A DNA stretch of 64,000 nucleotides from Phyllobates terribilis. Lineage: Eukaryota. Shown here one piece after another: positions 8,405 to 58,597 of the stretch (positions within the stretch are counted from its first letter, which is position 1; each line of letters starts with the position of its first letter). The stretch lies in contig NW_027362768.1 in NCBI RefSeq assembly GCF_046119375.1, positions 30,566,001 to 30,630,000 on the forward strand, in the 5' to 3' direction. The notes under the pieces were generated by a model. It was given only the letters and a program-made list of their open reading frames with translations. It searched no databases and was not told the origin of the DNA. The position numbers were made by a program, and so were the translations under genes.

Positions 8405-9499
8405 GCTAAAAAAAATGAAAGATATGCTATTTGATGGTTACACTAGAAGAGAACAAGTAACTGGGATTTGATGACAAGAAAGAGAATTACAGAAAACTGA
8501 ATAGCAGAAATGGTGTTTGTTTGCGAGAGGATGAATTTCCAACATAATTACCATTATAATTTCACACCAATGTAATCTTCATTAGAGATGAGCGTTGTTC
8601 TACTCGAACTGTTCGCCAATCTCAAATTCGAGCTGTTTTGGGCGGTGTTCGAGCCGTTCGGCGAACACGAACAATTTGAGAAAAATTCGGCTGTTCGAGG
8701 TTATGTTCGATAACTGTTCGTGCACCAAAATCATAACTGGATTTTTTCTCAGTAATGATGAAAATTAATGTTAATACGCAGTTTGAGTGTACAGCGGGGT
8801 GGGGGGAGGGGCAGGGGATGGATCTCTGCAGGAACAATGAAGATCTCCATTTTTTTTTCTCTTTCCCGCAATTACAGTGGGGAGGTGCAATCTGTCAGCC
8901 TATCAGCAGCGCACACACGGAGCGAAGTGCTTTTTTTCACACAAGCAAGGGAATGTGTCATTGGCAGTGTATGTCACATGTCCTTGCCCTATAAGACCAA
9001 GCCATTTTCCCCGTCGCCACCATTTTCTCACTGCTGCAGCTGCGTGTTAGACGGCACCGCTGTTGCTGTGTGCGCTATACCTTGTTAATTTCAAGCCAAT
9101 TTTCGCACAAATCTACAGATAGCTTGGGAGTAGGGAATAGTTGTGATTGCAGTCCTTTTAAGGACTAGGTTACAGCATTTCCTACGACTTTTATCAGGCA
9201 GGTCTGTGCTCTTAAATAGATAGATTGTGGGAGTAAAGACTAATTGTAATTGGAGTCCTTTTCAGGACTAGGTTACATCAGTTCCTATCAGTTTTTGCCA
9301 GGCAGGTCTGTGCCAGTGCTGTGCAAGTTTTTTTCACAGCATTTGGCTGAATCTAGCAAAGCTAATCCTTTTTGGCCTATTGCAGAGTGTGTTAGTCAGT
9401 GGAGTAGCCTATCTGTGTTGCAAGATATACCACCTGTGTATAGAATACCAATTTTTTTACTGCACCTAGTGAAGTAAAATCTTTTGGGCATAGCATCAT

Positions 9500-10106
9500 T
9501 CTATTAGTCCATCTATACTGACCTCCATCAGGTTGCAAATTGAATATAACTTTTTTCTGCATCTAGCTCTGAAAAAATATTGGGCTTCTAGCTGTGTGTG
9601 GGACTTGTTCTATTAATCCATCTATACAGACCTCCATCAGGTTGCAAACTGAATATATTTTTTTCTGCATCTACCTCTGAAAAAATATTGGGCTTCTAGC
9701 TGTGTGTGGGACTTGTTCTATTAATCCATCTATACAGACCTCCATCAGGTTGCAAACTGAATATATTTTTTTCTGCATCTAGCTCTGAAAAAATATTGGG
9801 CTTCTAGCTGTGTGTGGGACTTGTTCTATTAATCCATCTATACAGACCTCCATCAGGTTGCAAACTGAATATATTTTTTTCTGCATCTACCTCTGAAAAA
9901 ATATTGGGCTTCTAGCTGTGTGTGGGACTTGTTGTATTAGTCCATCTATACTGACCTCCATCAGGTTGCAAACTGAATATATTTTTTTCTGCATCTACCT
10001 CTGAAAAAATATTGGGCTTCTAGCTGTGTGTGGGACTTGTTCTATTAATCCATCTATACAGACCTCCATCAGGTTGCAAATTGAATATAATTTTTTTCTG
10101 CATCTA
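9500..10106 (+). repeat. 108-109 bp tandem array, about 5.6 units, upstream of the copy A transposase
   Basis: Unit starts at about 9500, 9609, 9717, 9825, 9933, 10041. Confidence 0.93.
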
Positions 10107-12120
10107 ACCCAGCCAATAGTTTTGGCCTAATACCACAGTTTGGCCACTCAGCTCTGCTCGGTTCCCATCCATTGTTTTTTTGTGCAAACAACTCCAGAGT
10201 TGTGAATTAGTTAACCACCAAAATGAGTGGAAAAAGGCCTGCTGCTGGTGGAAAGGGGAATAGGCATGTTGGGAAGGGGAAAAAAGGTTGTGTCCGTGGG
10301 GTAGGTGTTAAAGCAACAGTAACATCTGCAGAAGAAAGACCATCTTCCAGCCAAACTAAAATGTCTACTTCTTTTAGCGGACAATGTGATAAGATCCCTT
10401 TCTTACGGCCACGCCAATCGCTACAAATTCCAGATGAGGCACAAAAACAGCAGGTGCTTCAACGGATATCAAGTGCTCCTTTAAGTGGGCTCTCCTCCAC
10501 ATCAACTTCAACATCACAAATACGCCAGTCCTCAAAGGTGTCACCCCAATCGCACTTGCTTCCTCACAGCTCCCAAATCTCCAGCTGCCCGTCTGAGTAT
10601 GAGGTAGAACAGATGGTTGAGTCTGCAGAGCTGTTTACTCATACTATAGCCTGGGAATCAGAGGTCGACTCCAGCGCTTCTGTGAATCCAGACGAGGAAA
10701 TGATCTGCACTGATGCCCAGAATCTTTATGAGTCGGATCCAGGACCAGACGCAGAAGGTTCTGACCATAATGTAGACCCTCATTCCCAAACTGTAACTCC
10801 TGTTGGTGGAGACAATGAGGAAGACGATGATAAGACTCAAATACCTGATTGGAGCGACAACTTTAGTTTTTTGTCAGGGCAGGAACAGGTTGGCTCTGAG
10901 GACGACGGGTGTGATAACGCACAGGGTGATGATGATGAGGTTGGAGATCCCACTTACTGTCAACCCACAGTCAGCCAAGAGATGAGGTCAGCAGAGGAGG
11001 TGGAGGAAGATGCTAGTGACGACGAGGTCAGGTTGCGCCTTCCTGGACAGAGACGTAGTACTGGAAGCACGTCAACAACTGCATCCTCAAACACAACTCT
11101 GCCTCTCTCCACAAGTCGTGGTGGCTCTTCAGGTCGCATGGGTGCTAAGCCTTGCATAGCCTGGGCATTTTTTCAGATCAATAAAGATGACCCAACTCGT
11201 GTTTAGAGATGAGCGTTGTTCTACTCGAACTGTTCGCCAATCTCAAATTCGAGCTGTTTTGGGCGGTGTTCGAGCCGTTCGGCGAACACGAACAATTTGA
11301 TAAAAATTCGGCTGTTCGAGGTTATGTTCGATAACTGTTCGTGCACCAAAATCATAACTGGATTTTTTCTCAGTAATGATGAAAATTAATGTTAATACGC
11401 AGTTTGAGTGTACAGCGGGGTGGGGGGAGGGGCAGGGGATGGATCTCTGCAGGAACAATGAAGATCTCCATTTTTTTTTCTCTTTCCCGCATTTGCAGTG
11501 GGGAGGTGCAATCTGTCAGCCTATCAGCAGCGCACACACGGAGCGAAGTGCTTTTTTTCACACAAGCAAGGGCATGTGTCATTGGCAGTGTATGTCACAT
11601 GTCCTTGCCCTATAAGACCAAGCCATTTTCCCCGTCGCCACCATTTTCTCACTGCTGCAGCTGCGTGTTAGACGGCACCGCTGTTGCTGTGTGCGCTATA
11701 CCTTGTTAATTTCAAGCCAATTTTCGCACAAATATACAGATAGCTTGGGAGTAGGGAATAGTTGTGATTGCAGTCCTTTTAAGGACTAGGTTACAGCATT
11801 TCCTACGACTTTTATCAGGCAGGTCTGTGCTCTTAAATAGATAGATTGTGGGAGTAAAGACTAATTGTAATTGGAGTCCTTTTCAGGACTAGGTTACATC
11901 AGTTCCTATCAGTTTTTGCCAGGCAGGTCTGTGCCAGTGCTGTGCAAGTTTTTTTCACAGCATTTGGCTGAATCTAGCAAAGCTAATCCTTTTTGGCCTA
12001 TTGCAGAGTGTGTTAGTCAGTGGAGTAGCCTATCTGTGTTGCAAGATATACCACCTGTGTATAGAATACCAATTTTTTTACTGCACCTAGTGAAGTAAAA
12101 TCTTTTGGGCATAGCATCAT

Positions 12121-14166
12121 TCTATTAGTCCATCTATACTGACCTCCATCAGGTTGCAAACTGAATATAATTTTTTTCTACATCTAGCTCTGAAAAAATA
12201 TTTGGGCTTCTAGCAGTGTGTGGGACTTGGTCTATTAGTCCATCTATACTGACCTCCATCAGGTTGCAAATTAAAAATAATTTTTTTCTTCATTTAGCTC
12301 TGAAAAAATATTTGGGCTTCTAGCAGTGTGTGGGACTTGTTCTATTAGTCCTTCTATACTGACCTCCAGCAGGTTGCAAATTGAATATAATTTTTTTCTG
12401 CATCTAGCTCTGAAAAAATATTTGGGCTTCTAGCGGTGTGTGGGACTTGGTCTATTAGTCCATCTATACTGACCTCCATCAGGTTGCAAATTAAAAATAT
12501 TTTTTTTCTGCATCTAGCTCTGAAAAAATATTTGGGCTTCTAGCAGTGTGTGGGACTTGGTCTATTAGTCCATCTATACTGACCTCCATCAGGTTGCAAA
12601 TTAAAAATAATTTTTTTCTTCATTTATCTCTGAAAAAATATTTGGGCTTCTAGCAGCGTGTGGGACTTGTTCTATTAGTCCATCTATACTGACCTCCATC
12701 AGGTTGCAAATTAAAAATAATTTTTTTCTGCATCTAGCTCTGAAAAAATATTTGGGCTTCTAGCAGTGTGTGGGACTTGGTCTATTAGTCCATCTATACT
12801 GACCTCCATCAGGTTGCAAATTAAAAATATTTTTTTTCTGCATCTAGCTCTGAAAAAATATTTGGGCTTCTAGCAGTGTGTGGGACTTGGTCTATTAGTC
12901 CATCTATACTGACCTCCATCAGGTTGCAAATTGAATAAAAAAAATTTCTGCATCTAGCTCTGAAAAAATATTTGGGCTTCTAGCGGTGTGTGGGACTTGG
13001 TCTATTAGTCCATCTATACTGACCTCCATCAGGTTGCAAATTAAAAATAATTTTTTTCTGCATCTAGCTCTGAAAAAATATTTGGGCTTCTAGCAGTGTG
13101 TGGGACTTGGTCTATTAGTCCATCTATACTGACCTCCATCAGGTTGCAAATTAAAAATAATTTTTTTCTTCATTTAGCTCTGAAAAAATATTTGGGCTTC
13201 TAGCAGTGTGTGGGACTTGTTCTATTAGTCCTTCTATACTGACCTCCAGCAGGTTGCAAATTGAATATAATTTTTTTCTGCATCTAGCTCTGAAAAAATA
13301 TTTGGGCTTCTAGCGGTGTGTGGGACTTGGTCTATTAGTCCATCTATACTGACCTCCATCAGGTTGCAAATTAAAAATATTTTTTTTCTGCATCTAGCTC
13401 TGAAAAAATATTTGGGCTTCTAGCAGTGTGTGGGACTTGGTCTATTAGTCCATCTATACTGACCTCCATCAGGTTGCAAATTAAAAATAATTTTTTTCTT
13501 CATTTATCTCTGAAAAAATATTTGGGCTTCTAGCAGCGTGTGGGACTTGTTCTATTAGTCCATCTATACTGACCTCCATCAGGTTGCAAATTAAAAATAA
13601 TTTTTTTCTGCATCTAGCTCTGAAAAAATATTTGGGCTTCTAGCAGTGTGTGGGACTTGGTCTATTAGTCCATCTATACTGACCTCCATCAGGTTGCAAA
13701 TTAAAAATATTTTTTTTCTGCATCTAGCTCTGAAAAAATATTTGGGCTTCTAGCAGTGTGTGGGACTTGGTCTATTAGTCCATCTATACTGACCTCCATC
13801 AGGTTGCAAATTGAATAAAAAAAATTTCTGCATCTAGCTCTGAAAAAATATTTGGGCTTCTAGCGGTGTGTGGGACTTGGTCTATTAGTCCATCTATACT
13901 GACCTCCATCAGGTTGCAAATTAAAAATAATTTTTTTCTGCATCTAGCTCTGAAAAAATATTTGGGCTTCTAGCAGTGTGTGGGACTTGGTCTATTAGTC
14001 CATCTATACTGACCTCCATCAGGTTGCAAATTGAATAAAAAAATTTTCTGCATCTAGCTCTGAAAAAATATTTGGGCTTCTAGCGCTGTGTGGGACTTGG
14101 TCTATTAGTCCATCTATACTGACCTCCATCAGGTTGCAAATTAAAAATAATTTTTTTCTGCATCTA
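12121..14166 (+). repeat. 110-bp tandem array, about 18.6 units, with 880-bp higher-order duplication
   Basis: TCTATTAGTC starts every 110 bp from 12121 to 14101. The variant pattern of units 2-9 (12231-13110) recurs as units 10-17 (13111-13990). Confidence 0.95.
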
Positions 14167-14282
14167 ACCCAGCCAATAGTTTTGGCCTAATACCACAGTT
14201 TGGCCACTCAGCTCTGCTCGGTTACCATCCATTGTTTTTTTGTGCAAACAACTCCAGAGTTGTGAATTAGTTAACCACCAAA

Positions 14283-17200
14283 ATGAGTGGAAAAAGGCCT
14301 GCTGCTGGTGGAAAGGGGAATAGGCGTGTTGGGAAGGGTAAAAAAGGTTGTGTCCGTGGGGTAGGTGCAGAAGAAAGACCATCTTCCAGCCAAACTAAAA
14401 TGTCTACTACTTTTAGCGGACAATGTAATAAGATCCCTTTCTTACGGCCACGCCAATCGCTACAAATTCCAGATGAGGCACAAAAACAGCAGGTGCTTCA
14501 ACGGATATCAAGTGCTCCTTTAAGTGGGCTCTCCTCCACATCAACTTCAACATCACAAATACTCCAGTCCTCAAAGGTGTCACCCAAATCGCACTTGCTT
14601 CCTCACAGCTCCCAAATCTCCAGCTGCCCGTCTGAGTATGAGGTAGAACAGATGGTTGAGTCTGCAGAGCTGTTTACTCATACTATAGCCTGGGAATCAG
14701 AGGTCGACTCCAGCGCTTCTGTGAATCCAGAGGAGGAAATGATCTGCACTGATGCCCAGAATCTTTATGAGTCGGATCCAGGACCAGATGCAGAAGGTTC
14801 TGACCATAATGTAGACCCTCATTCCCAAACTGTAACTCCTGTTGGTGGAGACAATGAGGAAGACGATGATAAGACTCAAATACCTGATTGGAGCGACAAC
14901 TTTAGTTTTTTGTCAGGGCAGGAACAGGTTGGCTCTGAGGACGCCGGGTGTGATAACGCACAGGGTGATGATGATGAGGTCAGAGATCCCACTTACTGTC
15001 AACCCACAGTCAGCCAAGAGATGAGGTCAGCAGAGGAGGTGGAGGAAGATGCTAGTGACGACGAGGTCAGGTTGTGCCTTCCTGGACAGAGACGTAGTAC
15101 TGGAAGCACGTCAACAGCTGCATCCTCAAACACAACTCTGCCTCTCACCACAAGTCGTGGTGGCTCTTCAGGTCGCATGGGTGCTAAGCCTTGCATAGCC
15201 TGGGCATTTTTTCAGATCGATAAAGATGACCCAACTCGTGTTATCTGTAACATTTGTCAGCAACAGCTAAGTAGAGGCCAAAAAATACATAGTTTGAGTA
15301 CTTCATGCATGAACCGGCACATGGACATGAAGCATAAGTTGCAGTGGGAAGCTCAGTGTGCTACAATGCGGTCTAGCCGGCCGGGCCAACCACCGTCTGC
15401 CATATCTTGTGCATCCGCGGCCTCTTCATCCTCTGTGACTGGGGGGACAGCAGTCACACCTGTTTTGGGGCGCAGACCTGCCACCTCTTTACCCGCAACA
15501 GCCAGCGTGATTGGCAGGTCATCATTTTCTTTGGAGGTGGTAACACCAGCTGGTCTTGAGCGCTGTCCGACATCGATAGCACCACCTTTGGATCAAGGCA
15601 ACCTAACATGTCCGCCTGCATCTTCCTCACAGACCGGCAGTTTGCCGGGGACACCCTTATCAACCCCGTCTAAGCACAATAGCCAGCCCTCGGTCCCTCA
15701 GATGTGGACAAGTAAAAGACCATTTCCTCCTAGCCATGAGAAAGCTAAGAGGTTGAATTTCACCATCTGCAAGCTCTTGGCTACAGAAATGCTGCCTTTC
15801 CGCCTGGTGGACACAGAGGATTTTCGAGACCTTATGTCCGTCGCAGTGCCCCAGTACCAGATGCCCAGTCGGCACTACTTCTCAAAGAAAGGTGTGCCTG
15901 CGCTCCACCAGCATGTCGCACACAACATCACCGCTTCTTTGAGAAACTCTGTGTGTGACAGGGTGCATTTCACCACAGACACTTGGACGAGTAGGCATGG
16001 ACAGGGGAGTTACATGTCGCTGACTGGGCACTGGGTAACTATGGTGACAGCAGGACAAGGGGCTGCTGTCCAAGTCTTGCCGTCCCCACGAGTTGTGCGT
16101 CAATCCTCTTTATGTCATTTTACCTCCACTGCTTTTGCCTCCTCAACCTCCTCTCGGTCTTCCACCTGCACCCAAAGCCTGTCTGGTCATGCCACAAGCT
16201 TTCTAACTGCGCAGAAGGGATCCTGCACACCTCCTTACTATGCTGGCAGTAGGGCTCAACGTCATCAGGCGGTTTTTACATTGAAATGTCTGGGAAATGT
16301 GAGTCACACAGCTGAGGAGTTGTGGTCAGCTCTGGAGAACCAATTTCATGAATGGTTGTCTCCACTGGACCTGAAACCAGGGAAGGCCGTGTGCGACAAT
16401 GCTGCAAACCTGGGTGCGGCCCTTCGCCGGGGCAATGTCACACACGTGCCTTGTATGGCTCACGTGTTGAACCTGGTTGTCCAGCAATTTTTAGCCCACT
16501 ATCCCAGACTAGATGGCCTTCTGCAGAGGGCACTGTCGCTGTGTGCTCACTTCCGCCGTTCGCATCCCGCAGCTCAGCGACTTACATCTCTACAGAAGTC
16601 GTTGGGCCTGCCACTTCACCGGCTAAAATGCGATGTGCCTACCCGGTGGAATTCAACTCTGCACATGTTGCAGCGACTGTGGCAGCACCGACAAGCCCTG
16701 GTGCAATACGTTCTGACGTATAGCCTGGGCCAACGAGATTCAGAGGTGGGGCAAATCACGCTGGAGGAGTGGTCTCAGATCAGGGACCTATGCACCCTTC
16801 TGCACAGTTTTGAAATGGCGACGAAGATGTTTAGTGCTGACGATGCCATTATCAGCATGACTATTCCGGTGATTTACATGCTGGAGCACATGTTAAACAG
16901 AATTCGGAGTCAGGTGGTGGCACAAGAGGAGGTGGAGGAAGTAGAGGAGGAGGAGTTGTATGCGGAAGGGCTAACATCTGCAAGGTCCAGACGGTCGGCA
17001 GCACCAGGGCGGCAGGCATGTGAGGGTGGGGGAGATGATTTTACCAGGGCGCATGGTAGCAGCCAAACTAGTGAGGAAGGTGCAGGAGCCCAGGAAGAAG
17101 TGGAGGACGAACTGATGGAAGACTCATCAGATGAGGGAGACCTTGATCACATTTCTGTTGTGCGAGGTTGGGGGGAGAGGACAGAGGAAGGAAGCATGAT

Positions 17201-17963
17201 TGTTACCTCGCCACCAACACAACAGGGACTTGGTGCTCCTGGATGCGCAACACACATGAGTGCCTTCTTGCTGCACTACCTGCAACATGACCCTCGAATT
17301 GTGAGAATTGGAAATAATCCTGACTACTGGGTTGCCACACTGTTAGATCCCCGGTACAAAAGTAAATTTGCAGAAATTATTCCTGCCATAGAAAGGGATG
17401 CACGCATGCAGGAGTATCAGCAGAGACTGTTGCAGAATCTTACATGTGCTTTTCCACAAAATACCAGTGGTGCACGTAGTGAATCTCACAGTTCCAACTT
17501 GCCAAACGTGGGACTGTCAAGTGTTCAGCACTCAAACCGTAACAGAACCACAGTATCTGCTGGTAACATCAATTTTGCGGAATCATTTCACCACTTTTTT
17601 ATCCCATCCTTTGCAAGGCCACAGGAGACAAGAAGTCTGACACATAGTCAACGCCTAGAGACGATGGTACAGGAGTATCTCCAAGTAAACCTTGAAGCCA
17701 CGACTGTGTCACTGGACCCTTGCTCTTTTTGGGCTTCCAATCTGGATAAATGGCCGGAGCTAGCCACTTACGCCTTGGAGATCTTGTCATGCCCCGCAGC
17801 CAGCGTTCTGTCTGAACGTGTGTTCAGCGCTGCTGGTGGTGTGCTGACAGATAAGCGCACGCGGCTCTCCACTGATAATGTAGACAGACTCACGTTCATA
17901 AAGATGAACAAATCATGGATCCGAAACGACTTTTCTACCCCTGTGTCATCCTGGGGAGAGTAA
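14283..17963 (+). CDS. Intact hAT-superfamily transposase (ZBED-like), 1226 aa
   Basis: Acidic low-complexity N-terminus; BED zinc finger (WAFF..CNIC..HMDMKH); TTDTWTS, VCDNAAN, CMAH (CxxH), DVPTRWNST; C-terminal dimerisation motif CPAASVLSERVFSAAGG. No stops or frameshifts. Confidence 0.95.
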   Translation: MSGKRPAAGGKGNRRVGKGKKGCVRGVGAEERPSSSQTKMSTTFSGQCNKIPFLRPRQSLQIPDEAQKQQVLQRISSAPLSGLSSTSTSTSQILQSSKVSPKSHLLPHSSQISSCPSEYEVEQMVESAELFTHTIAWESEVDSSASVNPEEEMICTDAQNLYESDPGPDAEGSDHNVDPHSQTVTPVGGDNEEDDDKTQIPDWSDNFSFLSGQEQVGSEDAGCDNAQGDDDEVRDPTYCQPTVSQEMRSAEEVEEDASDDEVRLCLPGQRRSTGSTSTAASSNTTLPLTTSRGGSSGRMGAKPCIAWAFFQIDKDDPTRVICNICQQQLSRGQKIHSLSTSCMNRHMDMKHKLQWEAQCATMRSSRPGQPPSAISCASAASSSSVTGGTAVTPVLGRRPATSLPATASVIGRSSFSLEVVTPAGLERCPTSIAPPLDQGNLTCPPASSSQTGSLPGTPLSTPSKHNSQPSVPQMWTSKRPFPPSHEKAKRLNFTICKLLATEMLPFRLVDTEDFRDLMSVAVPQYQMPSRHYFSKKGVPALHQHVAHNITASLRNSVCDRVHFTTDTWTSRHGQGSYMSLTGHWVTMVTAGQGAAVQVLPSPRVVRQSSLCHFTSTAFASSTSSRSSTCTQSLSGHATSFLTAQKGSCTPPYYAGSRAQRHQAVFTLKCLGNVSHTAEELWSALENQFHEWLSPLDLKPGKAVCDNAANLGAALRRGNVTHVPCMAHVLNLVVQQFLAHYPRLDGLLQRALSLCAHFRRSHPAAQRLTSLQKSLGLPLHRLKCDVPTRWNSTLHMLQRLWQHRQALVQYVLTYSLGQRDSEVGQITLEEWSQIRDLCTLLHSFEMATKMFSADDAIISMTIPVIYMLEHMLNRIRSQVVAQEEVEEVEEEELYAEGLTSARSRRSAAPGRQACEGGGDDFTRAHGSSQTSEEGAGAQEEVEDELMEDSSDEGDLDHISVVRGWGERTEEGSMIVTSPPTQQGLGAPGCATHMSAFLLHYLQHDPRIVRIGNNPDYWVATLLDPRYKSKFAEIIPAIERDARMQEYQQRLLQNLTCAFPQNTSGARSESHSSNLPNVGLSSVQHSNRNRTTVSAGNINFAESFHHFFIPSFARPQETRSLTHSQRLETMVQEYLQVNLEATTVSLDPCSFWASNLDKWPELATYALEILSCPAASVLSERVFSAAGGVLTDKRTRLSTDNVDRLTFIKMNKSWIRNDFSTPVSSWGE

Positions 17964-18039
17964 AAGCTTGATGATTGGTTAAAATCACCCTACCAACCGT
18001 TTTAAGCTTTCAAATTACTAATCATGTTTATCTGTATCT

Positions 18040-18288
18040 TGACTGGAAAATAATTTGGGCTTTGTAGCAGTGTGCAGCACTGATCCTATTAGGCCATCTA
18101 TAATAAGCTTCACCAGATTTAAAATTAAAAATAATTTTTAGCTGCATCTAGCCCGGAAAATAATTTTGGGGCTCCGAGATGCGCAAGACACATAAGTGCC
18201 TTCTTGCTGCACTACCTGCAGCATGACCCTCATATTGTCAGAATTCGAAGTAATCATGACTACTGGGTTGCCACACTCTTAGATCCCC
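18040..18288 (+). pseudogene. Cargo: diverged single 110-bp unit followed by a relic fragment of a related hAT transposase
   Basis: 18040-18172 resembles the upstream tandem unit. 18177-18288 parallels 17241-17350 (SAFLLHYLQHDP..DYWVATLLDP). The relic resumes at 19663-19731, paralleling 17442-17510. Confidence 0.85.
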
Positions 18289-19662
18289 CAAACTTTTCGA
18301 TCAACCTTTTCATTTTAATAAAGACCAAAAAAATGGTCATTTTTGAAATTATAAGCATTAGCAGGTTGTTAGAAACTGAAATCAAACAGTTTTTAACTCA
18401 AAACTTTATTCTAGGTGATGTTACATTTTCACATAGGACCCCTTGTTCGAAAGGAGCTTCTGAACTCTCTCGTCCATTGAATTTGTCAGGTTTTGGATGG
18501 TTTCTGCTTCAATTGTTTTGCATGAGGACAGAATACCCTCCCAGAGCTGTTGCTTAGATGTGAACTGCCTCCCGCCATCATAGACACTCCTTTTAATGAT
18601 GCTCCAAAGGTTCTGAATGGGGTACAGGTCAGGGGAGCATGGGGGTCACACCATAAGTTTGTCCCCTTTTATGCCCATATCAGCCAGAGATGCAGATGTT
18701 TTATGTGCAGCATGAGATGGTGCATTATCATGCAGAAAAATGATCTTGCTGTGAAATACACGGTTCTTCTTCTTGAACCATGGCAGGAAGTGCTGTTTGA
18801 GAAAATCCACATACATTATGGAGTTCATCTTTAGCGCCTTCAGGGATCCTAAAGGGGCCGACAATCTCTCTCCCCATGATTCCAGCCCAAAACATTACTC
18901 CACCTCCTCCTTGTTGGCGCTGTAGCCGTGTTTGCGTGGGGTGTCCATCAACCAGCCATCCTCCACTCCATTCATCTGGACCATCGAGCGCTGCACGGCA
19001 CTCATCCGTGAACAAAACAGTTTTGAAATCAGTCTTCATGTAATGTTTGGCCCACTGGAGCCGTTTCTGCTTGTGTGAAGTGGATAGAGGAGGTCGACAG
19101 GATGGCGTATGCACAGCTGCAAACCTCTGAAGGACCCTGCATCTTGTTGTTCGGGGGACGTTGGAGGCACAAGCAGCTTCAAAAACTTGTCTGCTGCTAT
19201 GACAAGGCTTTTTTGCCGCTGCTCTTTCAACCTGACGTAATTGCCTGTAGGAAAGAGTCCTCAATTTGCCCTTATCAGCACGCACACGTGTGTACTGTGA
19301 ATCAGCTACATACTTCTTGATTGCCAAGACACTTCATCCTGATCATCGCACAATGTTGATTGTAGTCATGCCTTGACCTAAACACTCCACAATTTGTTGC
19401 TTCTCAGCAGCCGACACATCCTTTTTCTTTCCCATTTTGGCAGAAAATGTAGGCTACTTAATAATGTGAGACAGCCTTCTTAAGTAGTCTTGCCTTTCAT
19501 TGGACACACCTGCCAAACTAATTAGCACAGGTGTCTGCAATTGCTTACAGTGATATAAAGAGCCCTGACACACATCACCATCAATGAGTTTAACTGACAA
19601 ACAAACAAATTCTTCCCTTATCACTCCTAAACACTTTTTGCATAATAATTTGGAACGCGGTG
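18289..19662 (-). mobile_element. Cargo: dead Tc1 element (also 25493-26866 in A and 54398-55771 in C)
   Basis: TA + CACCGCGTTCCAAATTATTATGCA terminus at 19662; MGKKKDVSAAEK start near 19435; FTDECR, VMFWAGI, HDNAPSH motifs. The third catalytic motif reads SPDLYPIQNLWS (E>Q); frameshifted; other end truncated. Confidence 0.92.
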
Positions 19663-19734
19663 TACATGTGCTTTTCCACAAAACACCAGTGGTTCACGTA
19701 GTGAATCTTACAGTTCTAACTTGCCAACCGTGGT

Positions 19735-21555: not shown

Positions 21556-21666
21556 CTGCTTACAAATTTTTAACTGCATCTAGCCCAGGAAATACTTTGT
21601 GCCTAGTAGCAGTGTCTGCTAGTCAGCGGATTATCCCGGCTGTTAAGCAAGCTACACCACCTGTAG

Positions 21667-33420: not shown

Positions 33421-33424
33421 CTAA

Positions 33425-46002: not shown

Positions 46003-46964
46003 ACCTGTATAGAATACAGCAGGGGTCAGCAACCTGCAGCCCTGCAGTAGAGATGAGCGTTGTTCTACTCGAACTGTTCGCCAATCTCAAATTCGAGCTG
46101 TTTTGGGCGGTGTTCGAGCCGTTCGGCGAACACGAACAATTTGAGAAAAATTTGGCTGTTCGAGGTTATGTTCGATAACTGTTCGTGCACCAAAATCATA
46201 ACTGGATTTTTTCTCAGTAATGATGAAAATTAATGTTAATACGCAGTTTGAGTGTACAGCGGGGTGGGGGGAGGGGCAGGGGATGGATCTCTGCAGGAAC
46301 AATGAATATCTCCATTTTTTTTTCTCTTTCCCGCATTTGCAGTGGGGAGGTGCAATCTGTCAGCCTATCAGCAGCGCACACACGGAGCGAAGTGCTTTTT
46401 TTCACACAAGCAAGGGCATGTGTCATTGGCAGTGTATGTCACATGTCCTTGCCCTATAAGACCAAGCCATTTTCCCCGTCGCCACCATTTTATCACTGCT
46501 GCAGCTGCGTGTTAGACGGCACCGCTGTTGCTGTGTGCGCTATACCTTGTTAATTTCAAGCCAATTTTCGCACAAATATACAGATAGCTTGGGAGTAGGG
46601 AATAGTTGTGATTGCAGTCCTTTTAAGGACTAGGTTACAGCATTTCCTACGACTTTTATCAGGGAGGTCTGTGCTCTTAAATAGATAGATTGTGGGAGTA
46701 AAGACTAATTGTAATTGCAGTCCTTTTCAGGACTAAGTTACATCAGTTCCTATCAGTTTTTGCCAGGCTGGTCTGTGCCAGTGCTGTGCAAGTTTTTTTC
46801 ACAGCATTTGGCTGAATCTAGCAAAGCTAATCCTTTTTGGCCTATTGCAGAGTGTGTTAGTCAGTGGAGTAGCCTATCTGTGTTGCAAGATATACCACCT
46901 GTGTATAGAATACCAATTTTTTTACTGCACCTAGTGAAGTAAAATCTTTTGGGCATAGCATCAT

Positions 46965-47689
46965 TCTATTAGTCCATCTATACTGACCTCCATCAGGTTG
47001 CAAACTGAATATAATTTTTTTCTGCATCTGGCTCTGAAAAAATATTTGGCCTTCTAGCAGTGTGTCGGACTTTATCTATTAGTCCATCTATACTGACCTC
47101 CATCAGGTTGCAAATTAAAAATAATTTTTATCTGCATCTACAGTACCTCTGAAAAAATATTTGGGCTTCTAGCTGTGTGTGGGACTTGTTGTATTAGTCC
47201 ATCTATACTGACCTCCATCAGGTTGCAAACTGAATATATTTTTTTCTGCATCTACCTCTGAAAAATTATTGGGCTTCTAGCTGTGTGTGGGTCTTGTTGT
47301 ATTAGTCCATCTATACTGACCTCCATCAGGTTGCAAACTGAATATATTTTTTTCTGCATCTACCTCTGAAAAAATATTTGGGCTTCTAGCTGTGTGTGGG
47401 ACTTGTTGTATTAGTCCATCTATACTGACCTCCATCAGGTTGCAAACTGAATATATTTTTTTCTGCATCTACCTCTGAAAAAATATTGGGCTTCTAGCTG
47501 TGTGTGGGTCTTGTTCTATTAATCCATCTATACAGACCTCCATCAGGTTGCAAACTGAATATAATTTTTTTCTGCATCTACCTCTGAAAAAATATTGGGC
47601 TTCTAGCTGTGTGTGGGACTTGTTGTATTAGTCCATCTATACTGACCTCCATCAGGTTGCAAATTGAATATAATTTTTTTCTGCATCTA
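46965..47689 (+). repeat. About 109-bp tandem array, about 6.6 units, in copy C
   Basis: Seven unit starts between 46965 and 47624. Confidence 0.92.
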
Positions 47690-47805
47690 ACCCAGCCAAT
47701 AGTTTTGGCCTAATACCACAGTTTGGCCACTCAGCTCTGCTCGGTTACCATCCATTGTTTTTTTGTGCAAACAACTCCAGAGTTGTGAATTAGTTAACCA
47801 CCAAA

Positions 47806-50800
47806 ATGAGTGGAAAAAGGCCTGCTGCTGGTGGAAAGGGGAATAGGCGTGTTGGGAAGGGACAAAAAGGTTGTGTCTGTGGGGTAGGTGTTAAAGCAAC
47901 AGTAACATCTGCAGAAGAAAGACCATCTTCCAGCCAAACTAAAATGTCTACTTCTTTTAGCGGACAATGTGATAAGATCCCTTTCTTACGGCCACGCCAA
48001 TCGCTACAAATTCCAGATGAGGCACAAAAACAGCAGGTGCTTCAACGGATATCAAGTGCTCCTTTAAGTGGGCTCTCCTCCACATCAACTTCAACATCAC
48101 AAATACTCCAGTCCTCAAAGGTGTCACCCCAATCGCACTTGCTTCCTCACAGCTCCCAAATCTCCAGCTGCCCGTCTGAGTATGAGGTAGAACAGATGGT
48201 TGAGTCTGCAGAGCTGTTTACTCATACTATAGCCTGGGAATCAGAGGTCGACTCCAGCGCTTCTGTGAATCCAGACGAGGAAATGATCTGCACTGATGCC
48301 CAGAATCTTTATGAGTCGGATCCAGGACCAGACGCAGAAGGTTCTGACCATAATGTAGACCCTCATTCCCAAACTGTAACTCCTGTTGGTGGAGACAATG
48401 AGGAAGACGATGATAAGACTCAAATACCTGATTAGAGCGACAACTTTAGTTTTTTGTCAGGGCAGGAACAGGTTGGCTCTGAGGACGACGGGTGTGATAA
48501 CGCACAGGGTGATGATGATGAGGTTGGAGATCCCACTTACTGTCAACCCACAGTCAGCCAAGAGATGAGGTCAGCAGAGGAGGTGGAGGAAGATGCTAGT
48601 GACGACGAGGTCAGGTTGCGCCTTCCTGGACAGAGACGTAGTACTGGAAGCACGTCAACAACTGCATCCTCAAACACAACTCTGCCTCTCTCCACAAGTC
48701 GTAGTGGCTCTTCAGGTCGCATGGGTGCTAAGCCTTGCATAGCCTGGGCATTTTTTCAGATCAATAAAGATGACCCAACTCGTGTTATCTGTAACATTTG
48801 TCAGCAAAAGCTAAGTAGAGGCCAAAAAATACATAGTTTGAGTACTTCATGCATGAACCGGCACATGGATATGAAGCATAAGTTGCAGTGGGAAGCTCAG
48901 TGTGCTACAATGCGGCCTAGCCGGCCGCGCCAACCACCGTCTGCCATATCTTGTGCATCCGCGGCCTCTTCATCCTCTGTGACTGGGGGGACAGCAGTCA
49001 CACCTGTTTTGGGGCGCAGACCTGCCACCTCTTTACCCGCAACAGCCAGCGTGATTGGCAGGTCATCATTTTCTTTGGAGGTTACATAGTTACATAGTTT
49101 GTAAAGCCGAATAAAGACTTGCGTCCATCAAGTTCGACCTGTTAGTTCTGTAATTGCTAAAGTTGATCCAGAGGAGGGCAAAAACCCCAAATGATTTAGC
49201 CAATCTTCACCTGAGGAAAAATTCCCTCCCGACTCTGAAACCAGCAGTCAGAATAAATCCCTGTATCAACCTACTATTTTATTCTATTTTTAAGTATATG
49301 CTGAAATCTGCCTGGTATCTAGAAATGCATCCAGTCCCCGCTTGAACTGGTGTAGTGAATCTGACATTACCGTCTCCTCACTCAGTGAATTCCATATTCT
49401 CACTGCTCTTACCGTAAAGAACCCCTTCCTATGCTGGTGCTGAAACCTTTTCTCTTCCAGTCTTAGTGAATGCCCTCTTGTTACCGTAATATCCCTCCTT
49501 TTGAACAAATCCCGGGCAAGATCTCTATACTGTCCCCTAACATATTTGTACACATTTATTATGTCCCCCCTCAACCTTCTCTTTTCCAGGCTGAATAGTC
49601 CTAGTTTTGCCAACCTCTCTGGGTATTGCAGTCCCTCAATTCCCTTTATTAATTTTGTTGCCCTCCTTTGTACCTTTTCAAGCTCATTTATATCCTTTCT
49701 ATATATTGGGGCCCATAACTGAGCACAGTATTCCAAGTACAGACCCCTGTGGTACCCCACTAGTGACGCTTACCCAATCTGAGTATATTCCATTTATAAC
49801 CACCCTCTGCCTTCTATCCTTTAGCCAGTTAGCTACCCACTTGCAGACATTTTCCCCCAGCCCCATCATTCTCATTTTGTATACCAACCTATTATGTGGC
49901 ACGCTATCGAACGCTTTTGAGAAGTCGAGATACACGACATCCACTGGTTCCCCCTGATCTACTCGAGAGCTAACCTCCTCGTAGAAGTCAATCAGGTTTG
50001 TTTGGCAGGAGCGATTCCTCATGAATCCATGTTGGTTCGGGGTTAATAGATTATTAGCGTCAAGATGCTCCATGATTGCCTCATTAATAAAGCCTTCAAA
50101 AATTTTGCCCACAACGGACGTCAGACTCACCGGCCGATAGTTTCCGGTGTTACTTTTTGCTCCCTTTTTGAATATTGGCATTACATTCGCCTGTCGCCAA
50201 TCAAGTGGTACAGACCCAGTCTCAACAGAGTCCTTAAATATAAGATATAACGGTCTGTCTATCACATTACTTAGTTCCCTTAGTACCCGTGGGTGTATGC
50301 CATCAGGTCCTGGTGATTTGTTTATTTTAATGTTTATTTTAATGTTACTGAGGCGTTTCTGTACCCCAGCTTGGGTTAGATTTGTCATACTTAGTGGAGG
50401 ATTAAGCTTGTCACTTCTCATTTCGCCTGTTAGTTCTTTTTCTTTTGTGAAAGTTGACGAAAAAAAATTTATTTAATAGATTAGCTTTATCCTCATCTTT
50501 CTCTATGATTTTGCCTTCATCACTTTTTATCGGTCCAATATTATTCGATTTAATCCTTTTACTATTTATATACGTAAAGAACAGTTTGGGATTTGATCTA
50601 CTTTCCCTAGCAATACGTCTCTCTGTTTCCTCCTTTGCTATTTTTATTTGTTTTTTGCAGGTTCTCGTTTTTTCCTTGTAACACATTAGTGCCTTCTTGC
50701 TGTTTTCCTGTTTTAATCTCTTGAATGCCTCTTTTTTGCTATTTAACGCCCCTTTTACGTTCTTATTCAACCATATTGGTTTCCTCTTATTTCTGGCCCT

Positions 50801-53800
50801 TTTATTCCCATACGGTATATACCTCTCGCACTGAGTATTCAGAATTCTTTTGAAGGTTTCCCATCTACTATTCGTATTTCCTTGATTAAGAACTTTGTCC
50901 CAGTCTATAAGTTGAAGGTTTTCTTTCAGCTGATCAAACTTCGCCCTCCTAAAGTTTAATGTTTTAGTCGTTCCCTTATTGATAACCCTACTGAAGGGCA
51001 TTTTGAAATTGATAATATTATGATCGCTATTACCTAGGTGCCCCCCTATCTGTACCTCAGTTATTCTATCAGGCCTATTAGTCAATATTAAGTCCAACAC
51101 TGCCTTCCCTCTCGTTGGTTCCTGCACTAGTTGGGAGAGATAATTATCCTTGATATTTGTCAAGAACCTTTTTCCTTTCTGCGATCTACAGGTTTCTGTT
51201 TCCCAGTCAATATCCGGGTAGTTGAAGTCCCCCATTACAATCACCTCATTATGTTTTGCTACTTTGTCTATTTGTCCTAATAGCAGTTTCTCATTCTCCT
51301 CTGTTATATTGGGTGGCTTATAGCAGACCCCCAGTAATATTTTATTATTATTTTTTGCCCCCTCTATCTCTACCCACATGGACTCGACCCCCTCTTCTCC
51401 CTCTCCTATATCTTCCCTTAGTCTGGGCTTTAGACGTGACTTTACATATAAGCAGACTCCTCCGCCCTTCCCCTGTTTCCGGTCCCTTCTAAATAAACTA
51501 TAATCTGTTAAATTTACCGCCCAGTCGTAGCTATCGTCTAGCCAAGTCTCTGTTATACCTACGATGTCATACCTCTCCTCCGATATAAGCGCCCGCAGCT
51601 CATCCGCCTTATTGGTCAGGCTTCTTGCGTTGGTCAGCATGCAGGTGGGAACACCAGCTGGTGTTGAGCGCTGTCCGACATCGATAGCACCACCTTTGGA
51701 TCAAGGCAACCTAACATGTCCGCCTGCATCTTCCTCACAGACCGGCAGTTTGCCGGGGACACCCTTATCAACCCCGTCTAAGCACAATAGCCAGCCCTCG
51801 GTCCCTCAGATGTGGACAAGTAAAAGACCATTTCCTCCTAGCCATGAGAAAGCTAAGAGGTTGAATTTCACCATCTGCAAGCTCTTGGCTACAGAAATGC
51901 TGCCTTTCCGCCTGGTGGACACAGAGGATTTTCGAGACCTTATGTCCGTCGCAGTGCCCCAGTACCAGATGCCCAGTCGGCACTACTTCTCAAAGAAAGG
52001 TGTGCCTGCGCTCCACCAGCATGTCGCACACAACATCACCGCTTCTTTGAGAAACTCTGTGTGTGACAGGGTGCATTTCACCACAGACACTTGGACGAGT
52101 AGGCATGGACAGGGGCGTTACATGTCGCTGACTGGGCACTGGGTAACTATGGTGACAGCAGGACAAGGGGCTGCTGTCCAAGTCTTGCCGTCCCCACGAG
52201 TTGTGCGTCAATCCTCTTTATGTCAAAGTTCCTCCACTGCTTCTGCCTCCTCAACCTCCTCTCGGTCTTCCACCTGCACCCAAAGCCTGTCTGGTCATGC
52301 CACAAGCTTTCTAACTGCGCAGAAGGGATCCTGCACACCTCCTTACTATGCTGGCAGTAGGGCTCAACGTCATCAGGCGGTTTTTACATTGAAATGTCTG
52401 GGAAATGTGAGTCACACAGCTGAGGAGTTGTGGTCAGCTCTGGAGAACCAATTTCATGAATGGTTGTCTCCACTGGACCTGAAACCAGGGAAGGCCGTGT
52501 GCGACAATGCTGCAAACCTGGGTGCGGCCCTTCTCCGGGGCAATGTCACACACGTGCCTTGTATGGCTCACGTCTTGAACCTGGTTGTCCAGCAATTTTT
52601 AGCCCACTATCCCAGACTAGATGGCCTTCTGCAGAGGGCATGGTCGCTGTGTGCTCACTTCCGCCATTCGCATCCCACAGCTCAGCGACATACATCTCTA
52701 CAGAAGTCGTTGGGCTTGCCACTTCACCGGCTAAAATGCGATGTGCCTACCCGGTGGAATTCAACTCTGCACATGTTGCAGCGACTGTGGCAGCACCGAC
52801 AAGCCCTGGTGCAATACGTTCTGTCGTATAGCCTGGGCCAACGAGATTCAGAGGTGGGGCAAATCACGCTGGAGGAGTGGTCTCAGATCAGGGACCTATG
52901 CACCCTTCTGCACAGTTTTGAAATGGCGACGAAGATGTTTAGTGCTGACGATGCCATTATCAGCATGACTATTCCGGTGATTTACATGCTGGAGCACATG
53001 TTAAACAGAATTCGGAGTCAGGTGGTGGCACAAGAGGAGGTGGAGGAAGTAGAGGAGGAGGAGTTGTATGCGGAAGGGCTAACATCTGCAAGGTCCAGAC
53101 GGTCGGCAGCACCAAGGCGGCAGGCATGTGAGGGTGGGGGAGATGGTTTTACCAGGGCGCATGGTAGCAGCCAAACTAGTGAGGAAGGTGCAGGAGCCCA
53201 GGAAGAAGTGGAGGACGAACTGATGGAAGACTCATCAGATGAGGGAGACCTTGATCACATTTCTGTTGTTCGAGGTTGGGGGGAGAGGACAGAGGAAGGA
53301 AGCATGATTGTTACCTCGCCACCAACACAACAGGGACTTGGTGCTCCTGGATGCGCAACACACATGAGTGCCTTCTTGCTGCACTACCTGCAACATGACC
53401 CTCGAATTGTGAGAATTAGAAATAATCCTGACTACTGGGTTGCCACACTGTTAGATCCCCGGTACAAAAGTAAATTTGCAGAAATTATTCCTGCCATAGA
53501 AAGGGATGCACGCATGCAGGAGTATCAGCAGAGACTGTTGCAGAATCTTACATGTGCTTTTCCACAAAATACCAGTGGTGCACGTAGTGAATCTCACAGT
53601 TCCAACTTGCCAACCGTGGGACCGTCAAGTGTTCAGCACTCAAACCGTAACAGAACCACAGTATCTGCTGGTAACATCAATTTTGCGGAATCATTTCACC
53701 ACTTTTTTAGCCCATCCTTTGCAAGGCCACAGGAGACAAGAAGTCTGACACATAGTCAATGCCTAGAGACGATGGTACAGGAGTATCTCCAAGTAAACAT

Positions 53801-54071
53801 TGAAGCCACGACTGTGTCACTGGACCCTTGCTCTTTTTGGGCTTCCAATCTGGATAAATGGCCGGAGCTAGCCACTTACGCCTTGGAGATCTTGTCATGC
53901 CCCGCAGCCAGCGTTCTGTCTGAACGTGTGTTCAGCGCTGCTGGTGGTGTGCTGACAGATAAGCGCACGCGGCTCTCCACTGATAATGTAGACAGACTCA
54001 CGTTCATAAAGATGAACAAATCATGGATCCGAAATGACTTTTCTACCCCTGTGTCATCCTGGGGAGAGTAA
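47806..54071 (+). pseudogene. hAT transposase of copy C (47806-49082 + 51647-54071), disrupted
   Basis: TGG>TAG at 48433-48435 and the CR1 insertion. Confidence 0.93.
49083..51642 (-). mobile_element. CR1-clade LINE, 5' truncated, internally deleted
   Basis: APE endonuclease (TNARSL, GITETW, MGDFNYPDIDW, LDLILTN, SDHN); RT (YRPVSLTS, YLDFSKAFD, SGVPQGSVLG); C-terminus LFSLEKRRLRGD; (ACTATGTA)n tail at 49081-49099; AGGT duplicated at 49079-49082 and 51643-51646; +1 frameshift in the A8 run at 50460-50467. Confidence 0.95.
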
Positions 54072-57000
54072 AAGCTTGATGATTGGTTAAAATCACCCTA
54101 CCAACCGTTTTAAGCTTTCAAATTACTAATCATGTTTATCTGTATCTTGACTGGAAAATAATTTGGGCTTTGTAGCAGTGTGCAGCACTGATCCTATTAG
54201 GCCATCTATACTAAAGCTTCACCAGATTTAAAATTAAAAATAATTTTTAGCTGCATCTAGCCCGGAAAATAATTTTGGGGCTCCGAGATGCGCAAGACAC
54301 ATAAGTGCCTTCTTGCTGCACTACCTGCAGCATGACCCTCATATTGTCAGAATTCGAAGTAATCATGACTACTGGGTTGCCACACTCTTAGATCCCCCAA
54401 ACTTTTCGATCAACCTTTTCATTTTAATAAAGACCAAAAAAATGGTCATTTTTGAAATTATAAGTATTAGCAGGTTGTTAGAAACTGAAATCAAACAGTT
54501 TTCAACTCAAAACTTTATTCTAGGTGATGTTACATTTTCACATAGGACCCCTTGTTCGAAAGGAGCTTCTGAACTCTCTCGTCCATTGAATTTGTCAGGT
54601 TTTGGATGGTTTCTGCTTCAATTGTTTTGCATGAGGACAGAATACCCTCCCAGAGCTGTTGCTTAGATGTGAACTGCCTCCCGCCATCATAGACACTCCT
54701 TTTAATGATGCTCCAAAGGTTCTGAATGGGGTAGAGGTCAGGGGAGCATGGGGGTCACACCATAAGTTTGTCCCCTTTTATGCCCATATCAGCCAGAGAT
54801 GCAGATGTTTTATGTGCAGCATGAGATGGTGCATTATCATGCAGAAAAATGATCTTGCTGTGAAATTCACGGTTCTTCTTCTTGAACCATGGCAGGAAGT
54901 GCTGTTTGAGAAAATCCACATACATTATGGAGTTCATCTTTAGCGCCTTCAGGGATCCTAAAGGGGCCGACAATCTCTCTCCCCATGATTCCAGCCCAAA
55001 ACATTACTCCACCTCCTCCTTGTTGGCGCTGTAGCCGTGTTTGCGTGGGGTGTCCATCAACCAGCCATCCTCCACTCCATCCATCTGGACCATCGAGCGC
55101 TGCACGGCACTCGTCCGTGAACAAAACTGTTTTGAAATCAGTCTTCATGTAATGTTTGGCCCACTGGAGCCGTTTCTGCTTGTGTGAAGTGGATAGAGGA
55201 GGTCGACAGGATGGCGTATGCACAGCTGCAAACCTCTGAAGGACCCTGGATCTTGTTGTTCGGGGGACGTTGGAGGCACAAGCAGCTTCAAAAACTTGTC
55301 TGCTGCTATGACAAGGCTTTTTTGCCGCTGCTCTTTCAACCTGACGTAATTGCCTGTAGGAAAGAGTCCTCAATTTGCCCTTATCAGCACGCACACGTGT
55401 GTACTGTGAATCAGCTACATACTTCTTGATTGCCAAGACACTTCATCCTGATCATCGCACAATGTTGATTGTAGTCATGCCTTGACCTAAACACTCCACA
55501 ATTTGTTGCTTCTCAGCAGCCGACACATCCTTTTTCTTTCCCATTTTGGCAGAAAATGTAGGCTGCTTAATAATTTGAGAGAGCCTTCTTAAGTAGTCTT
55601 GCCTTTCATTGGACACACCTGCCAAACTAATTAGCACAGGTGTCTGCAATTGCTTACAGTGATATAAAGAGCCCTGACACACATCACCATCAATGAGTTT
55701 AACTGACAAACAAACAAATTCTTCCCTTATCACTCCTAAACACTTTTTGCATAATAATTTGGAACGCAGTGTACATGTGCTTTTCCACAAAACACCAGCG
55801 GTTCACGTAGTGAATCTTACAGTTCTAACTTGCCAACCGTGGTCTGTATGGAGTTGTTCAATAAAGGGCCCAAAATTAAGATAACATAGATGGGAGAGGT
55901 CTCTATGAATAGGAATTCCTAAGTATTTGATACCCTGTGAGGGCCAGGCAAAGGGAAAGTTGGACTGGATGGAATCCTATATGGATTTGGGGAGGGAGAC
56001 ATCGAGGGCCTCAGACTTCGCTGCATTGATTTTAAAATTTGACCATGTAACAAAGTGATCTATTTCAGCCATAACAGCATGGATGGATATATGTGATTGA
56101 GTGATATATACTAGGACATCATCAGCAAATAGAGAGCACTTGTACTCGGTTCCTCCCACCTCAATCCACCTAATATTGGGGTTATGGCGAATTGATGAGA
56201 GCAGGTGCTCCGTCACTAGGATGTATAAGAGAGGGGACAGAGGACATCCCTGCCTTGTCCCATTGGTGATTGTGAAAGGTGATGAAAATGTTCTGACGCA
56301 CCCCCTGGGCCTTGGGACACTCGGAGCCGGACCCTTTTTGGTGGATGCTGGTGGTTGTAGTCTTCGTGGCGGCGACCCGGTTCCGTGGCTCAGGGCGGTC
56401 AAACCAGTGGCGGAACTATTTATGTGGTTTTGATGTTTAAATGTACGACTACGCCACCCGTGGATTGCGGTCAGAGTGAACCGCCGCTACAGGGCAGACC
56501 GCTGAGGCTGGTGTTGTGGGTGCAGCAGAGCGTAGCATAACTCCCCACGGGAGGAGTATAGCCTCAGGGCAGTGTATGCGGAGGATGGGGGTGATGGTGC
56601 AGGGCAGCAGCAGTAACGACACGGAGTCAGTGATGCAGTTCAGGGCCTTTACTCACAGTTCTTATTATCCAGACCACGTCTGCAGGTAACGGCTGCCCAC
56701 GTCATACTGTGCTCACCAGGTGAGGGGCTCAGACAACTCCCAGATAACTTTGGAGCACTTCACAGGACCCCCTTTGTGTGTCCTTTGTCTGGCCTTTCTT
56801 ACCAACACTTCTGTCCGGCTGCCTCGGGCCTCCTCTTGGTAAACTTGGCGCCAGTTTCCCTGACCCTATGTGGTGCCTTCCTAGCGGGTGTAGCGAGGGG
56901 CTGCGCCACATAAAATGTCAGAGCCTCCGGTTTCTAGCTGAGGGTCGTTTCCTGCCTCCACTAGTTTCGGGGACCGGTCTCCCCCTTTGGCCTGACCCCT

Positions 57001-57671
57001 CCACGCAGGTGGATTCGGGCGTGCGGTGGTGACTCGCCCGTCCGCACCCCTCATGCAGAGCCCCTGCTCCCTGCCACTACTGCTCAGACTTCTCTGCACT
57101 GAACTAAGATGGTGCCCACCTTTTATACTCCCTTCTCAATGCACCCAGGAACTGCTTCCTCCCTGCTCCTGCACTACAGGGTTCCCCTTCCTCAGTGTTC
57201 CCTCCCCCCACTCCAGCCAGGGACAGGGACTGTCGTGCCCATCTCAGGGGCATATTGGTCGCCCTGCCCCACGGCAATGTGGTGTAAAGCATGCAGGTGT
57301 CGGGTCCTGATCCACACTCCATCCTTACCTGAGAGTGAGATATCACACCTCTGGGTGAGGTGCAATACGTCTGTAGCAACCGAGCCCTCAGGGTGCTACA
57401 GTTCCATTTATCTTCAGCCTAAGTGACGTATTGTGATACAGGGCCGTGATTTTGGCTCTAAAATGGTCCCCTAGACCCCTACCCCAAGCTTTTTAAGAGA
57501 ATCATATATGGCGTGCCAGGAGACTCTATGGAATGCTTTCTCAGCATCCAACGAGAGTATCTAATTACAAATTTTTAACTGCATCTAGCCCAGGAAATAC
57601 TTTGTGCCTAGTAGCAGTGTCTGCTAGTCAGCGGATTATCCCGGCTGTTAAGCAAGCTACACCACCTGTAG

Positions 57672-57942
57672 TTTAGACACTTAATTTTTTCAAAGGAAAT
57701 GCTTCGGGACCATGGGATACTTAGTGAAGAGCATCGGGAGGCACCCCAAGGCATAGGGGCTGGGACTGGCAGTAGGATGCCTTGCGGTGGACAGCCGAGC
57801 TCGATCCTTATTAAAGCTTTTTAACTGCTGCAACTTTAGTGGACGCTACTGGAGCTGGAATTACGCGGCTGCTGGCATGAGACTTGCCCTCCAATAGATC
57901 CTTGTAAATGGATTTAAAGTGTATTCATTCAAATTAGAGAGA
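57672..57942 (-). pseudogene. Cargo: degraded 18S rRNA fragment, copy C
   Basis: Near-identical to 21667-21937. Confidence 0.9.
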
Positions 57943-58597
57943 CAATTTAAATTAAAAAGCTTAGAGCTGCCTCCACCACAGGGGGGCTCGCTCGACCCAC
58001 CAGCGGACAGGCACCAGTATTGGGAGAGGGGGGCTGGCCATCAGGGTTCACCGCGGCTCTGGCACAAACCCGGCGACACGGAGGTGGCACGGGCAGGAGC
58101 GGACTGGCCGTGTCGGCTTCTCACTTTTTGGATTTTAGAAGGGCATGACATGCCTATATCTGTGTCTCCCCCTCCTTTTACTCCTCCACCTCTTTTATTT
58201 TCGCATGACTATATGTACTTGTCACTTTTCCATGTGTTAGTTGTGTCTTCTGAGCAGTTTGTCAGCTTTTGGACACCTTTGAAGGTGTTTTCTATGTGTT
58301 TCTATGTGTTTTTGTTTGCCTGCCATTGGTTTTAACGGTGTTCGAAGGTGTTCGACGAACAGTTCGGCGAACACACGGGTGTTCGACGAACCGAACTCGA
58401 ACACTACGGGGGTGGCTCAACACTACCCTGCAGCTGTTGGGAAAATGTAACTACCAGCAGGACATGATGGCAGATAACATTTCACAACAGCTGGAGTATC
58501 GCAGGTTGCTGACCCCTTGTCTACAGCTACACTTTTTGTCATCACTTGTAGTTTAAGACTTCTTTATTAGTTTCTATTTCTGCTTCATGTTTTTCAG

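Follow-up and report, generated by a model that had tools for sequence, protein, structure and literature searches.

A massively amplified Ac-type hAT transposon of Phyllobates terribilis and the probable origin of its cargo in an older sister copy

How does a DNA transposon come to carry pieces of other elements behind its transposase gene, and how far has it spread with them? The question is raised by a 64,000-nucleotide stretch of the Phyllobates terribilis genome (NCBI RefSeq assembly GCF_046119375.1, contig NW_027362768.1, forward-strand positions 30,566,001 to 30,630,000; hereafter the window), in which copies of a hAT element hold a cargo that includes a dead Tc1 transposon, part of a long interspersed nuclear element (LINE), a solo long terminal repeat (LTR) and an 18S rRNA fragment. 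Our analysis indicated a massively amplified Ac-type hAT, and it seems probable that its cargo derives from the right half of an older sister copy that had decayed, with the LTR added last.

The element, its ends and its cargo

Comparison of the window with itself recovered three family copies on the same strand, A, B and C, as the initial annotation of this DNA had reported:

8583..29616, + strand: copy A, interrupted by B; its 3' terminal 12 bp are gone and an in-frame stop lies near 23522
11204..22437, + strand: copy B, a complete element sitting inside the transposase of A
11196-11203 and 22438-22445: 8-bp target-site duplication (TSD) of B, CTCGTGTT on both sides
46048..58425, + strand: copy C, both ends present, TSD CCCTGCAG, open reading frame (ORF) interrupted by an insertion and by a stop
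49083..51640 (approximate), - strand: LINE insert in the transposase of C, with endonuclease and reverse transcriptase (RT)

Copies A and B share 98.5% identity across 7.2 kb, and B and C 98.9% across 5.4 kb. A search for identity beyond the terminal inverted repeats (TIRs), suggested at the outset, found none; it ends at the element termini, and the 300-bp flanks of A and C are unrelated (best local score 8 on either side). B and C have both ends and distinct 8-bp TSDs, as claimed, and no TSD was found for A. The further description of the copies as differing only by single-nucleotide polymorphisms and short indels stands for the copies in general, but not for a 110-bp tandem array (5.6, 18.6 and 6.6 units in A, B and C), for the LTR of C, from which ~105 bp are missing, or for the transposase ORF, which is unbroken in B alone among the three. 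The LINE in C, which we take to be a CR1, entered after C landed and is not cargo.

By all features tested here (TSD, TIRs and subterminal repeats, transposase domains) the family is a hAT. The relevant parts of B are:

11204..11214, + strand: 5' TIR, 11 bp, matching the 3' TIR at 9 of 11 positions
12121..14166, + strand: 110-bp tandem array, 18.6 units
14283..17963, + strand: hAT transposase ORF, 1,226 amino acids (aa), with zf-BED, D-D-E, CxxH, RW and a dimerisation domain
22427..22437, - strand: 3' TIR, the right terminus of B

Subterminal motifs of GTTCG type occur 9 and 12 times per 250 bp in the two ends and 0 times in an internal control. The transposase of B scores above the cut-off for Pfam PF02892 and PF05699, its sole structural match by sequence is Hermes (E 1e-18), and the columns that we take to be the D, D, E, CxxH and RW motifs are conserved between it and 11 homologues. 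Altogether there were 19 homologues (14 frog-named, 2 salmonid-named and 3 unnamed), the closest named proteins being frog 'ZBED4/6-like' predictions at 27-42% identity. Among 69 distinct flanking 8-mers, T stands at position 2 in 61 and A at position 7 in 58. The target consensus nTnnnnAn is a signature of Ac (PMC8961557), and the target preference of the family in this dataset is of Ac type.

After the transposase stop, a cargo of ~4.4 kb in total leads to the 3' arm in the following order, in B:

18005..18173, + strand: degenerate 110-bp units, ~75% identical to the 5' array; their number varies among copies
18166..18288, + strand: remnant 1 of an older sister transposase, 123 bp, 89% identical to 17230-17352
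18289..19662, - strand: dead Tc1; one end is intact and adjoins the TA of the remnant, the other is deleted
19663..19733, + strand: remnant 2 of the sister transposase, 71 bp, 93% identical to 17441-17511, beginning at the TA target
19734..~21556, - strand: internal LINE RT piece (Pfam RVT_1), split by the solo LTR
20185..21395, unstranded: solo LTR, 1,211 bp, TG...CA, 4-bp TSD GTTC
21565..21664, + strand: piece that resembles both the 110-bp unit and the 5' arm of the element, 74% identical to 11968-12058
~21650..21950, - strand: degenerate 18S rRNA fragment (Rfam RF01960)

This agrees with the order first described, a hAT relic, Tc1, an LTR-split L1 RT piece and 18S, where the L1 label is putative and follows that description and sequence motifs. 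The TA adjoining the intact Tc1 end is present at the equivalent position of the transposase, the remnants flank the Tc1 in ORF order, and the other Tc1 end was lost together with 88 bp of transposase, a pattern that marks a Tc1 which had inserted into an older sister copy before part of both was deleted. The 18S fragment scores 63-72 bits against RF01960 in A, B and C (gathering score 50) and accounts for about 0.3 kb of the 4.4 kb, the remainder being Tc1, LINE, LTR and the family's own remnants. That 18S sequence might be an ancient trait of this lineage's frog hATs was also considered and is unsupported: Rfam gave no hit in 14 loci of diverged relatives (1.5-kb flanks only), nor in 6 stretches from four other hAT copies, one of which reaches a 3' end.

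Copy number, subfamilies and age

Exact 28-mers were counted in the 10.57-Gb assembly, with a reversed-pattern control that gave 0 for each. The 5' end occurs 49,787 times, the transposase stop 57,857, the Tc1 junction 59,923 and the 18S piece 59,753. Words at the LTR junction (30,396) and at a first choice of 18S edge (15,454) undercount because they span subfamily variants, and better-conserved 28-mers were then picked from 15 sampled copies. The parity of stop, Tc1 and 18S counts indicates that nearly every copy carries cargo, which answers the concern that copies elsewhere might lack it. The genome holds about 60,000 family sites, which we estimate at 0.51-0.60 Gb, or 4.8-5.7% of the assembly, at 8.8-10 kb per copy if most are near full length; the passenger Tc1, LINE, LTR and 18S pieces would make up ~0.27 Gb of this in ~60,000 copies.

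A DNA search with the cargo gave 999 candidates, of which 33 were scored, with 99-100% matches across contigs C1-C13. Nineteen such loci were extended upstream; both ends were found in 13, the copies most like B, and perfect, distinct 8-bp TSDs in 12 of these. The two-ended copies are 9.7-12.6 kb long, mostly because of the length of the 110-bp array, and four of them encode, like B, the full 1,226-aa ORF. The initial annotation's view of a young hAT moving its cargo by independent transposition is thus upheld by the intact ORFs and the TSDs. Its suggestion of local hopping is unsupported: distal copies score 8013 of 8076 bits to B's cargo while A and C differ by 0.7-1.0% from B, so that copies on other contigs resemble B more closely than either neighbour does, and no local hopping is needed. 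The nesting of B in A is expected of a family that makes up ~5% of the genome, and 2 of 20 sampled 5' ends likewise lie in family sequence.

The layout was followed further along contig C1. Among the matches listed there, a 5' end lies at most 25 kb upstream of 40 of the 45 LTR junctions, and downstream of 90 of the 94 stops comes an exact match to the Tc1 junction or the 18S piece (6 stop and 4 18S rows outside the shared range were left out). The spacing from 100 Tc1 junctions to the 18S motif was LTR-sized in 76, LTR-less in 4 and other in 9, with no 18S motif in 11. A further twenty loci were hand-picked among the first 100 of the listing, a sample that leans towards variants unlike B, since the exact LTR junction was present in 1 of 15 checked. 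After exclusion of two with the wrong flank, all 18 had the remnant and Tc1 at the start of the cargo, which was complete in 12, LTR-less in 2 and interrupted in 4.

The description of the cargo as fixed therefore holds in that nearly every copy carries it, but not in detail, as LTR-less and differently loaded subfamilies exist. The empty LTR site was matched exactly 26 times, 24 of them with the predicted continuation, and 11 of 12 inspected loci were elements without the LTR (the twelfth was a nested insertion); two of these LTR-less copies, L079 and L083, retain the two ends and lie between matching TSDs. Across 18300-20180, the average distance from the group's majority sequence is 0.6% for 13 LTR-bearing copies and 1.5% for 10 LTR-less copies, with 3.3% between the two majorities. 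The LTR-less group is separate and older, and accretion was stepwise, with the LTR last. At 1-3e-9 substitutions per site per year (PMC12822217), the LTR-bearing copies would be roughly 2-6 million years old and the LTR-less copies roughly 5-15 million. In a run whose label names another organism, a contig that is ~94-97% alike spans the empty LTR site, and the run itself shows zero depth across most of the LTR; the contig extends only ~27 bases beyond the LINE piece, which is consistent with, but not proof of, an LTR-less element there. The contigs X14 and X17, of guessed type, show presence only.

Other loads travel between the same ends. Four of 20 examined 5' ends without an exact LTR junction belong to a second derivative with other cargo: its transposase (92-93%) is inverted and interrupted, and it holds a fragment of a tyrosine-recombinase retroelement (Pfam Phage_integrase) and another insertion. 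Its junction occurs in at least 2,010 copies, and its layout is common to 5 of 5 further copies, with an extra LTR at one site in 3 of the 9 seen. Accretion and subsequent amplification have thus taken place repeatedly. In a third arrangement (L076:7676-9570) other scraps of transposase precede the LINE piece, 18S fragment and 3' end known from B, with no Tc1.

Two kinds of element were seen beside these. L076:1751-7314 is non-coding and 5.6 kb long; it has the ends of the family and a perfect TSD, but its interior is unrelated and internally repeated. At L054, L060, L061, L062 and L068, ~5-kb LTR elements, 66-74% identical to the cargo LTR, lie inside family copies; that of L068 has an internal frame of 730 aa with a cold-shock domain at its end and no RT by Pfam.

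A proposed history and its rivals

In the history that we consider probable, copies with an intact ORF would supply a transposase, which would recognise the subterminal repeats as well as the short TIRs and mobilise anything between them, leaving 8-bp TSDs; the ends, TSDs and motifs are those observed above, and the activity is predicted from the intact frames. An older sister copy would have been struck in turn by a LINE, the Tc1 and deletions, its arm ending with the 18S fragment. An active left half would then have adopted the right end of this wreck, most likely by insertion into it or recombination with it, for which the insertion of B into A may offer a parallel. The chimera would have amplified as an LTR-less wave, until a founder gained an LTR element that was cut down to the solo LTR and gave the dominant younger wave. 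The late arrival of the LTR is evident from the subfamilies. The cargo is most likely neutral freight.

Several observations weigh against this history. No Tc1-free or 18S-free autonomous ancestor was found, so that the fusion, and the sequence in which the earlier pieces of cargo arrived, are inferred; the history does not account for the entry of the 18S piece. Two LTR-less copies, L081 and L083, fall in the young clade and were excluded from the older group, suggesting that recombination or secondary loss blurs the subfamilies. The samples are small, and most were drawn within the initial 33 Mb of contig C1, in which family density is 3.7 per Mb against a genome mean of 5.5 per Mb. ORF differences between subfamilies are near neutral (18 synonymous, 44 nonsynonymous), and expression was sought in one raw RNA run, which is probably another organism's RNA and yielded 12 reads, 11 of them less than 90% alike.

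The alternative that survives best, although we think it unlikely, is pack-type capture, in which foreign pieces would have entered the 3' arm as copies made during gap repair or by template switching, a route that has been proposed for both Pack-MULEs and Pack-TIRs. The Tc1, L1 and 18S pieces are indeed internal fragments with ragged ends, the junction of the same L1 piece with other transposase scraps at L076 suggests patchwork repair, and a frog is known to have multicopy Pack-hATs (PMC8277862). The canonical Tc1 end at a TA and the TSD of the LTR are nevertheless marks of insertion, and the matrix around both is the family's own transposase and repeats; a host gene is the source of the 18S piece alone. 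Capture in the Pack-MULE sense, as the 'pack' label originally implied, is not supported for a load in which three of four classes are transposon debris in the family's own transposase remnant.

It is quite improbable that the cargo is functional, with the solo LTR or the antisense 18S piece boosting transposition or escape from silencing and so producing the larger, younger burst. The excess of LTR-bearing over LTR-less copies (76 to 4 in the spacing sample), their lower age and the retention of cargo where shorter derivatives should arise would fit such a role, but the founders differ at ~3% of other sites too, the open frames of the cargo are broken, the RNA run gave no transcript support, and a derivative without B-type cargo also multiplied, to 2,010 copies or more. 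An assembly artefact or a segmental duplication, which copies 98-99.7% identical and three within 50 kb might suggest, is refuted by the distinct TSDs of 12 of 13 dispersed copies, and is further contradicted by the end of identity at the TIRs, by matches across C1-C13 and by several independent studies in which 95-96% of the sequence words occur.

A bolder extension of the sister-copy history, which we regard as rather unlikely, is that the lineage serially chimerises with its own decayed copies, that gain of the solo LTR triggered a burst adding about half a gigabase in a few million years, that the transposase is naturally of high capacity and possibly still active, and that part of the 'recent LTR, Tc1 and L1 activity' in giant frog genomes is DNA-transposon freight.

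Other repeats were seen along the way. A second hAT family (L129-L133; G000 C4:417.51 Mb, C13:42.52 Mb and C11:499.65 Mb) has a 1,141-aa frame that is unbroken in many of the copies listed; its 3' minisatellite arrays, with ~203-bp and 66-bp units, run to several kb, and its total length exceeds 12 kb. In the window, 258-899 is a Tc1-type DDE transposase fragment (DDE_3), and a ~381-bp repeat family, probably of MITE type (miniature transposable elements with inverted repeats), forms direct and inverted arrays at 3052-5042, 31507-33423 and 36491-40751, with large palindromes at 37280-39225 and 34605-42775. A 297-bp tandem array (4.7 copies, 96% matches) lies at 62497-63926, and MITE-like, perfectly centred inverted repeats at 42792-43358 (88%) and 61421-61645 (92%).

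Implications and comparison with known systems

Transposition efficiency is expected to fall above ~6 kb (PMC6431247), and a 10-kb family at an estimated ~5% of a 10.6-Gb genome with ~1% pairwise divergence runs contrary to that expectation. The family records, with dates and step by step, how the genome has grown. Library-based masking would score its Tc1, LINE, LTR and 18S passengers as young bursts of unrelated superfamilies, when these scraps resemble recent bursts because they hitchhiked on a hAT; this bears on work tying anuran genome size to recent retrotransposon activity (PMC12822217). The intact transposase is, judged from its reading frame, a candidate gene-transfer tool.

The contribution of hATs to large amphibian genomes is known (PMC11872487, PMC12822217). 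We found no description of this family in the open-licence papers searched; supplements or repeat libraries may hold it under an automatic name. It shares with the hAT Ac family (Hermes, hobo, Tol2) the 8-bp TSD, the nTnnnnAn target, short TIRs, the BED finger and the DDE core, and differs in its ~10-kb length, single 1,226-aa ORF, variable 110-bp array, 4.4 kb of freight and ~60,000 near-identical copies. A parallel with an autonomous carrier is Tol2 with the Angel MITE, a vertebrate hAT that spread carrying an inserted element and has a known empty-site relative (bioRxiv 10.64898/2026.01.12.699174); there the passenger is one ~0.6-kb MITE of two ~300-bp arms, whereas here four classes are stacked and the steps are recorded by subfamilies.

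Pack-TIRs and Pack-MULEs likewise amplify sequence between TIRs by repeated transposition. They carry host gene pieces and in animals are mostly single-copy, with four multicopy cases; Pack-hAT-N8_XT is described with three copies in Xenopus (PMC8277862). Most Pack-MULEs measure 1-2 kb and are moved in trans (PMC6431247). The present family works like a multicopy Pack element, in that its cargo is multiplied by transposition with distinct TSDs, yet it lacks two defining Pack-TIR/Pack-MULE features: its load is mainly transposon debris rather than a captured host gene fragment, and the cargo-bearing form is not a non-autonomous element mobilised in trans but itself encodes the full transposase. 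In MER6 a V-SINE domain was spread by a Mariner MITE (PMC6887750), and Xenopus Tx1 inserts into the DNA transposon Tx1D (PMC4494074); those carriers are non-autonomous, belong to other superfamilies and hold a single passenger. The large pvCACTA1 of common bean, with >12,000 elements (PMC4938662), is a plant CACTA whose copy number is, by that published figure, about a fifth of the count obtained here. That DNA transposons can carry passengers is known, and what is notable here, more than any new mechanism, is the scale and youth of a 10-kb family, the misleading signals that it would produce in repeat annotation and the readable order in which its cargo was gained.

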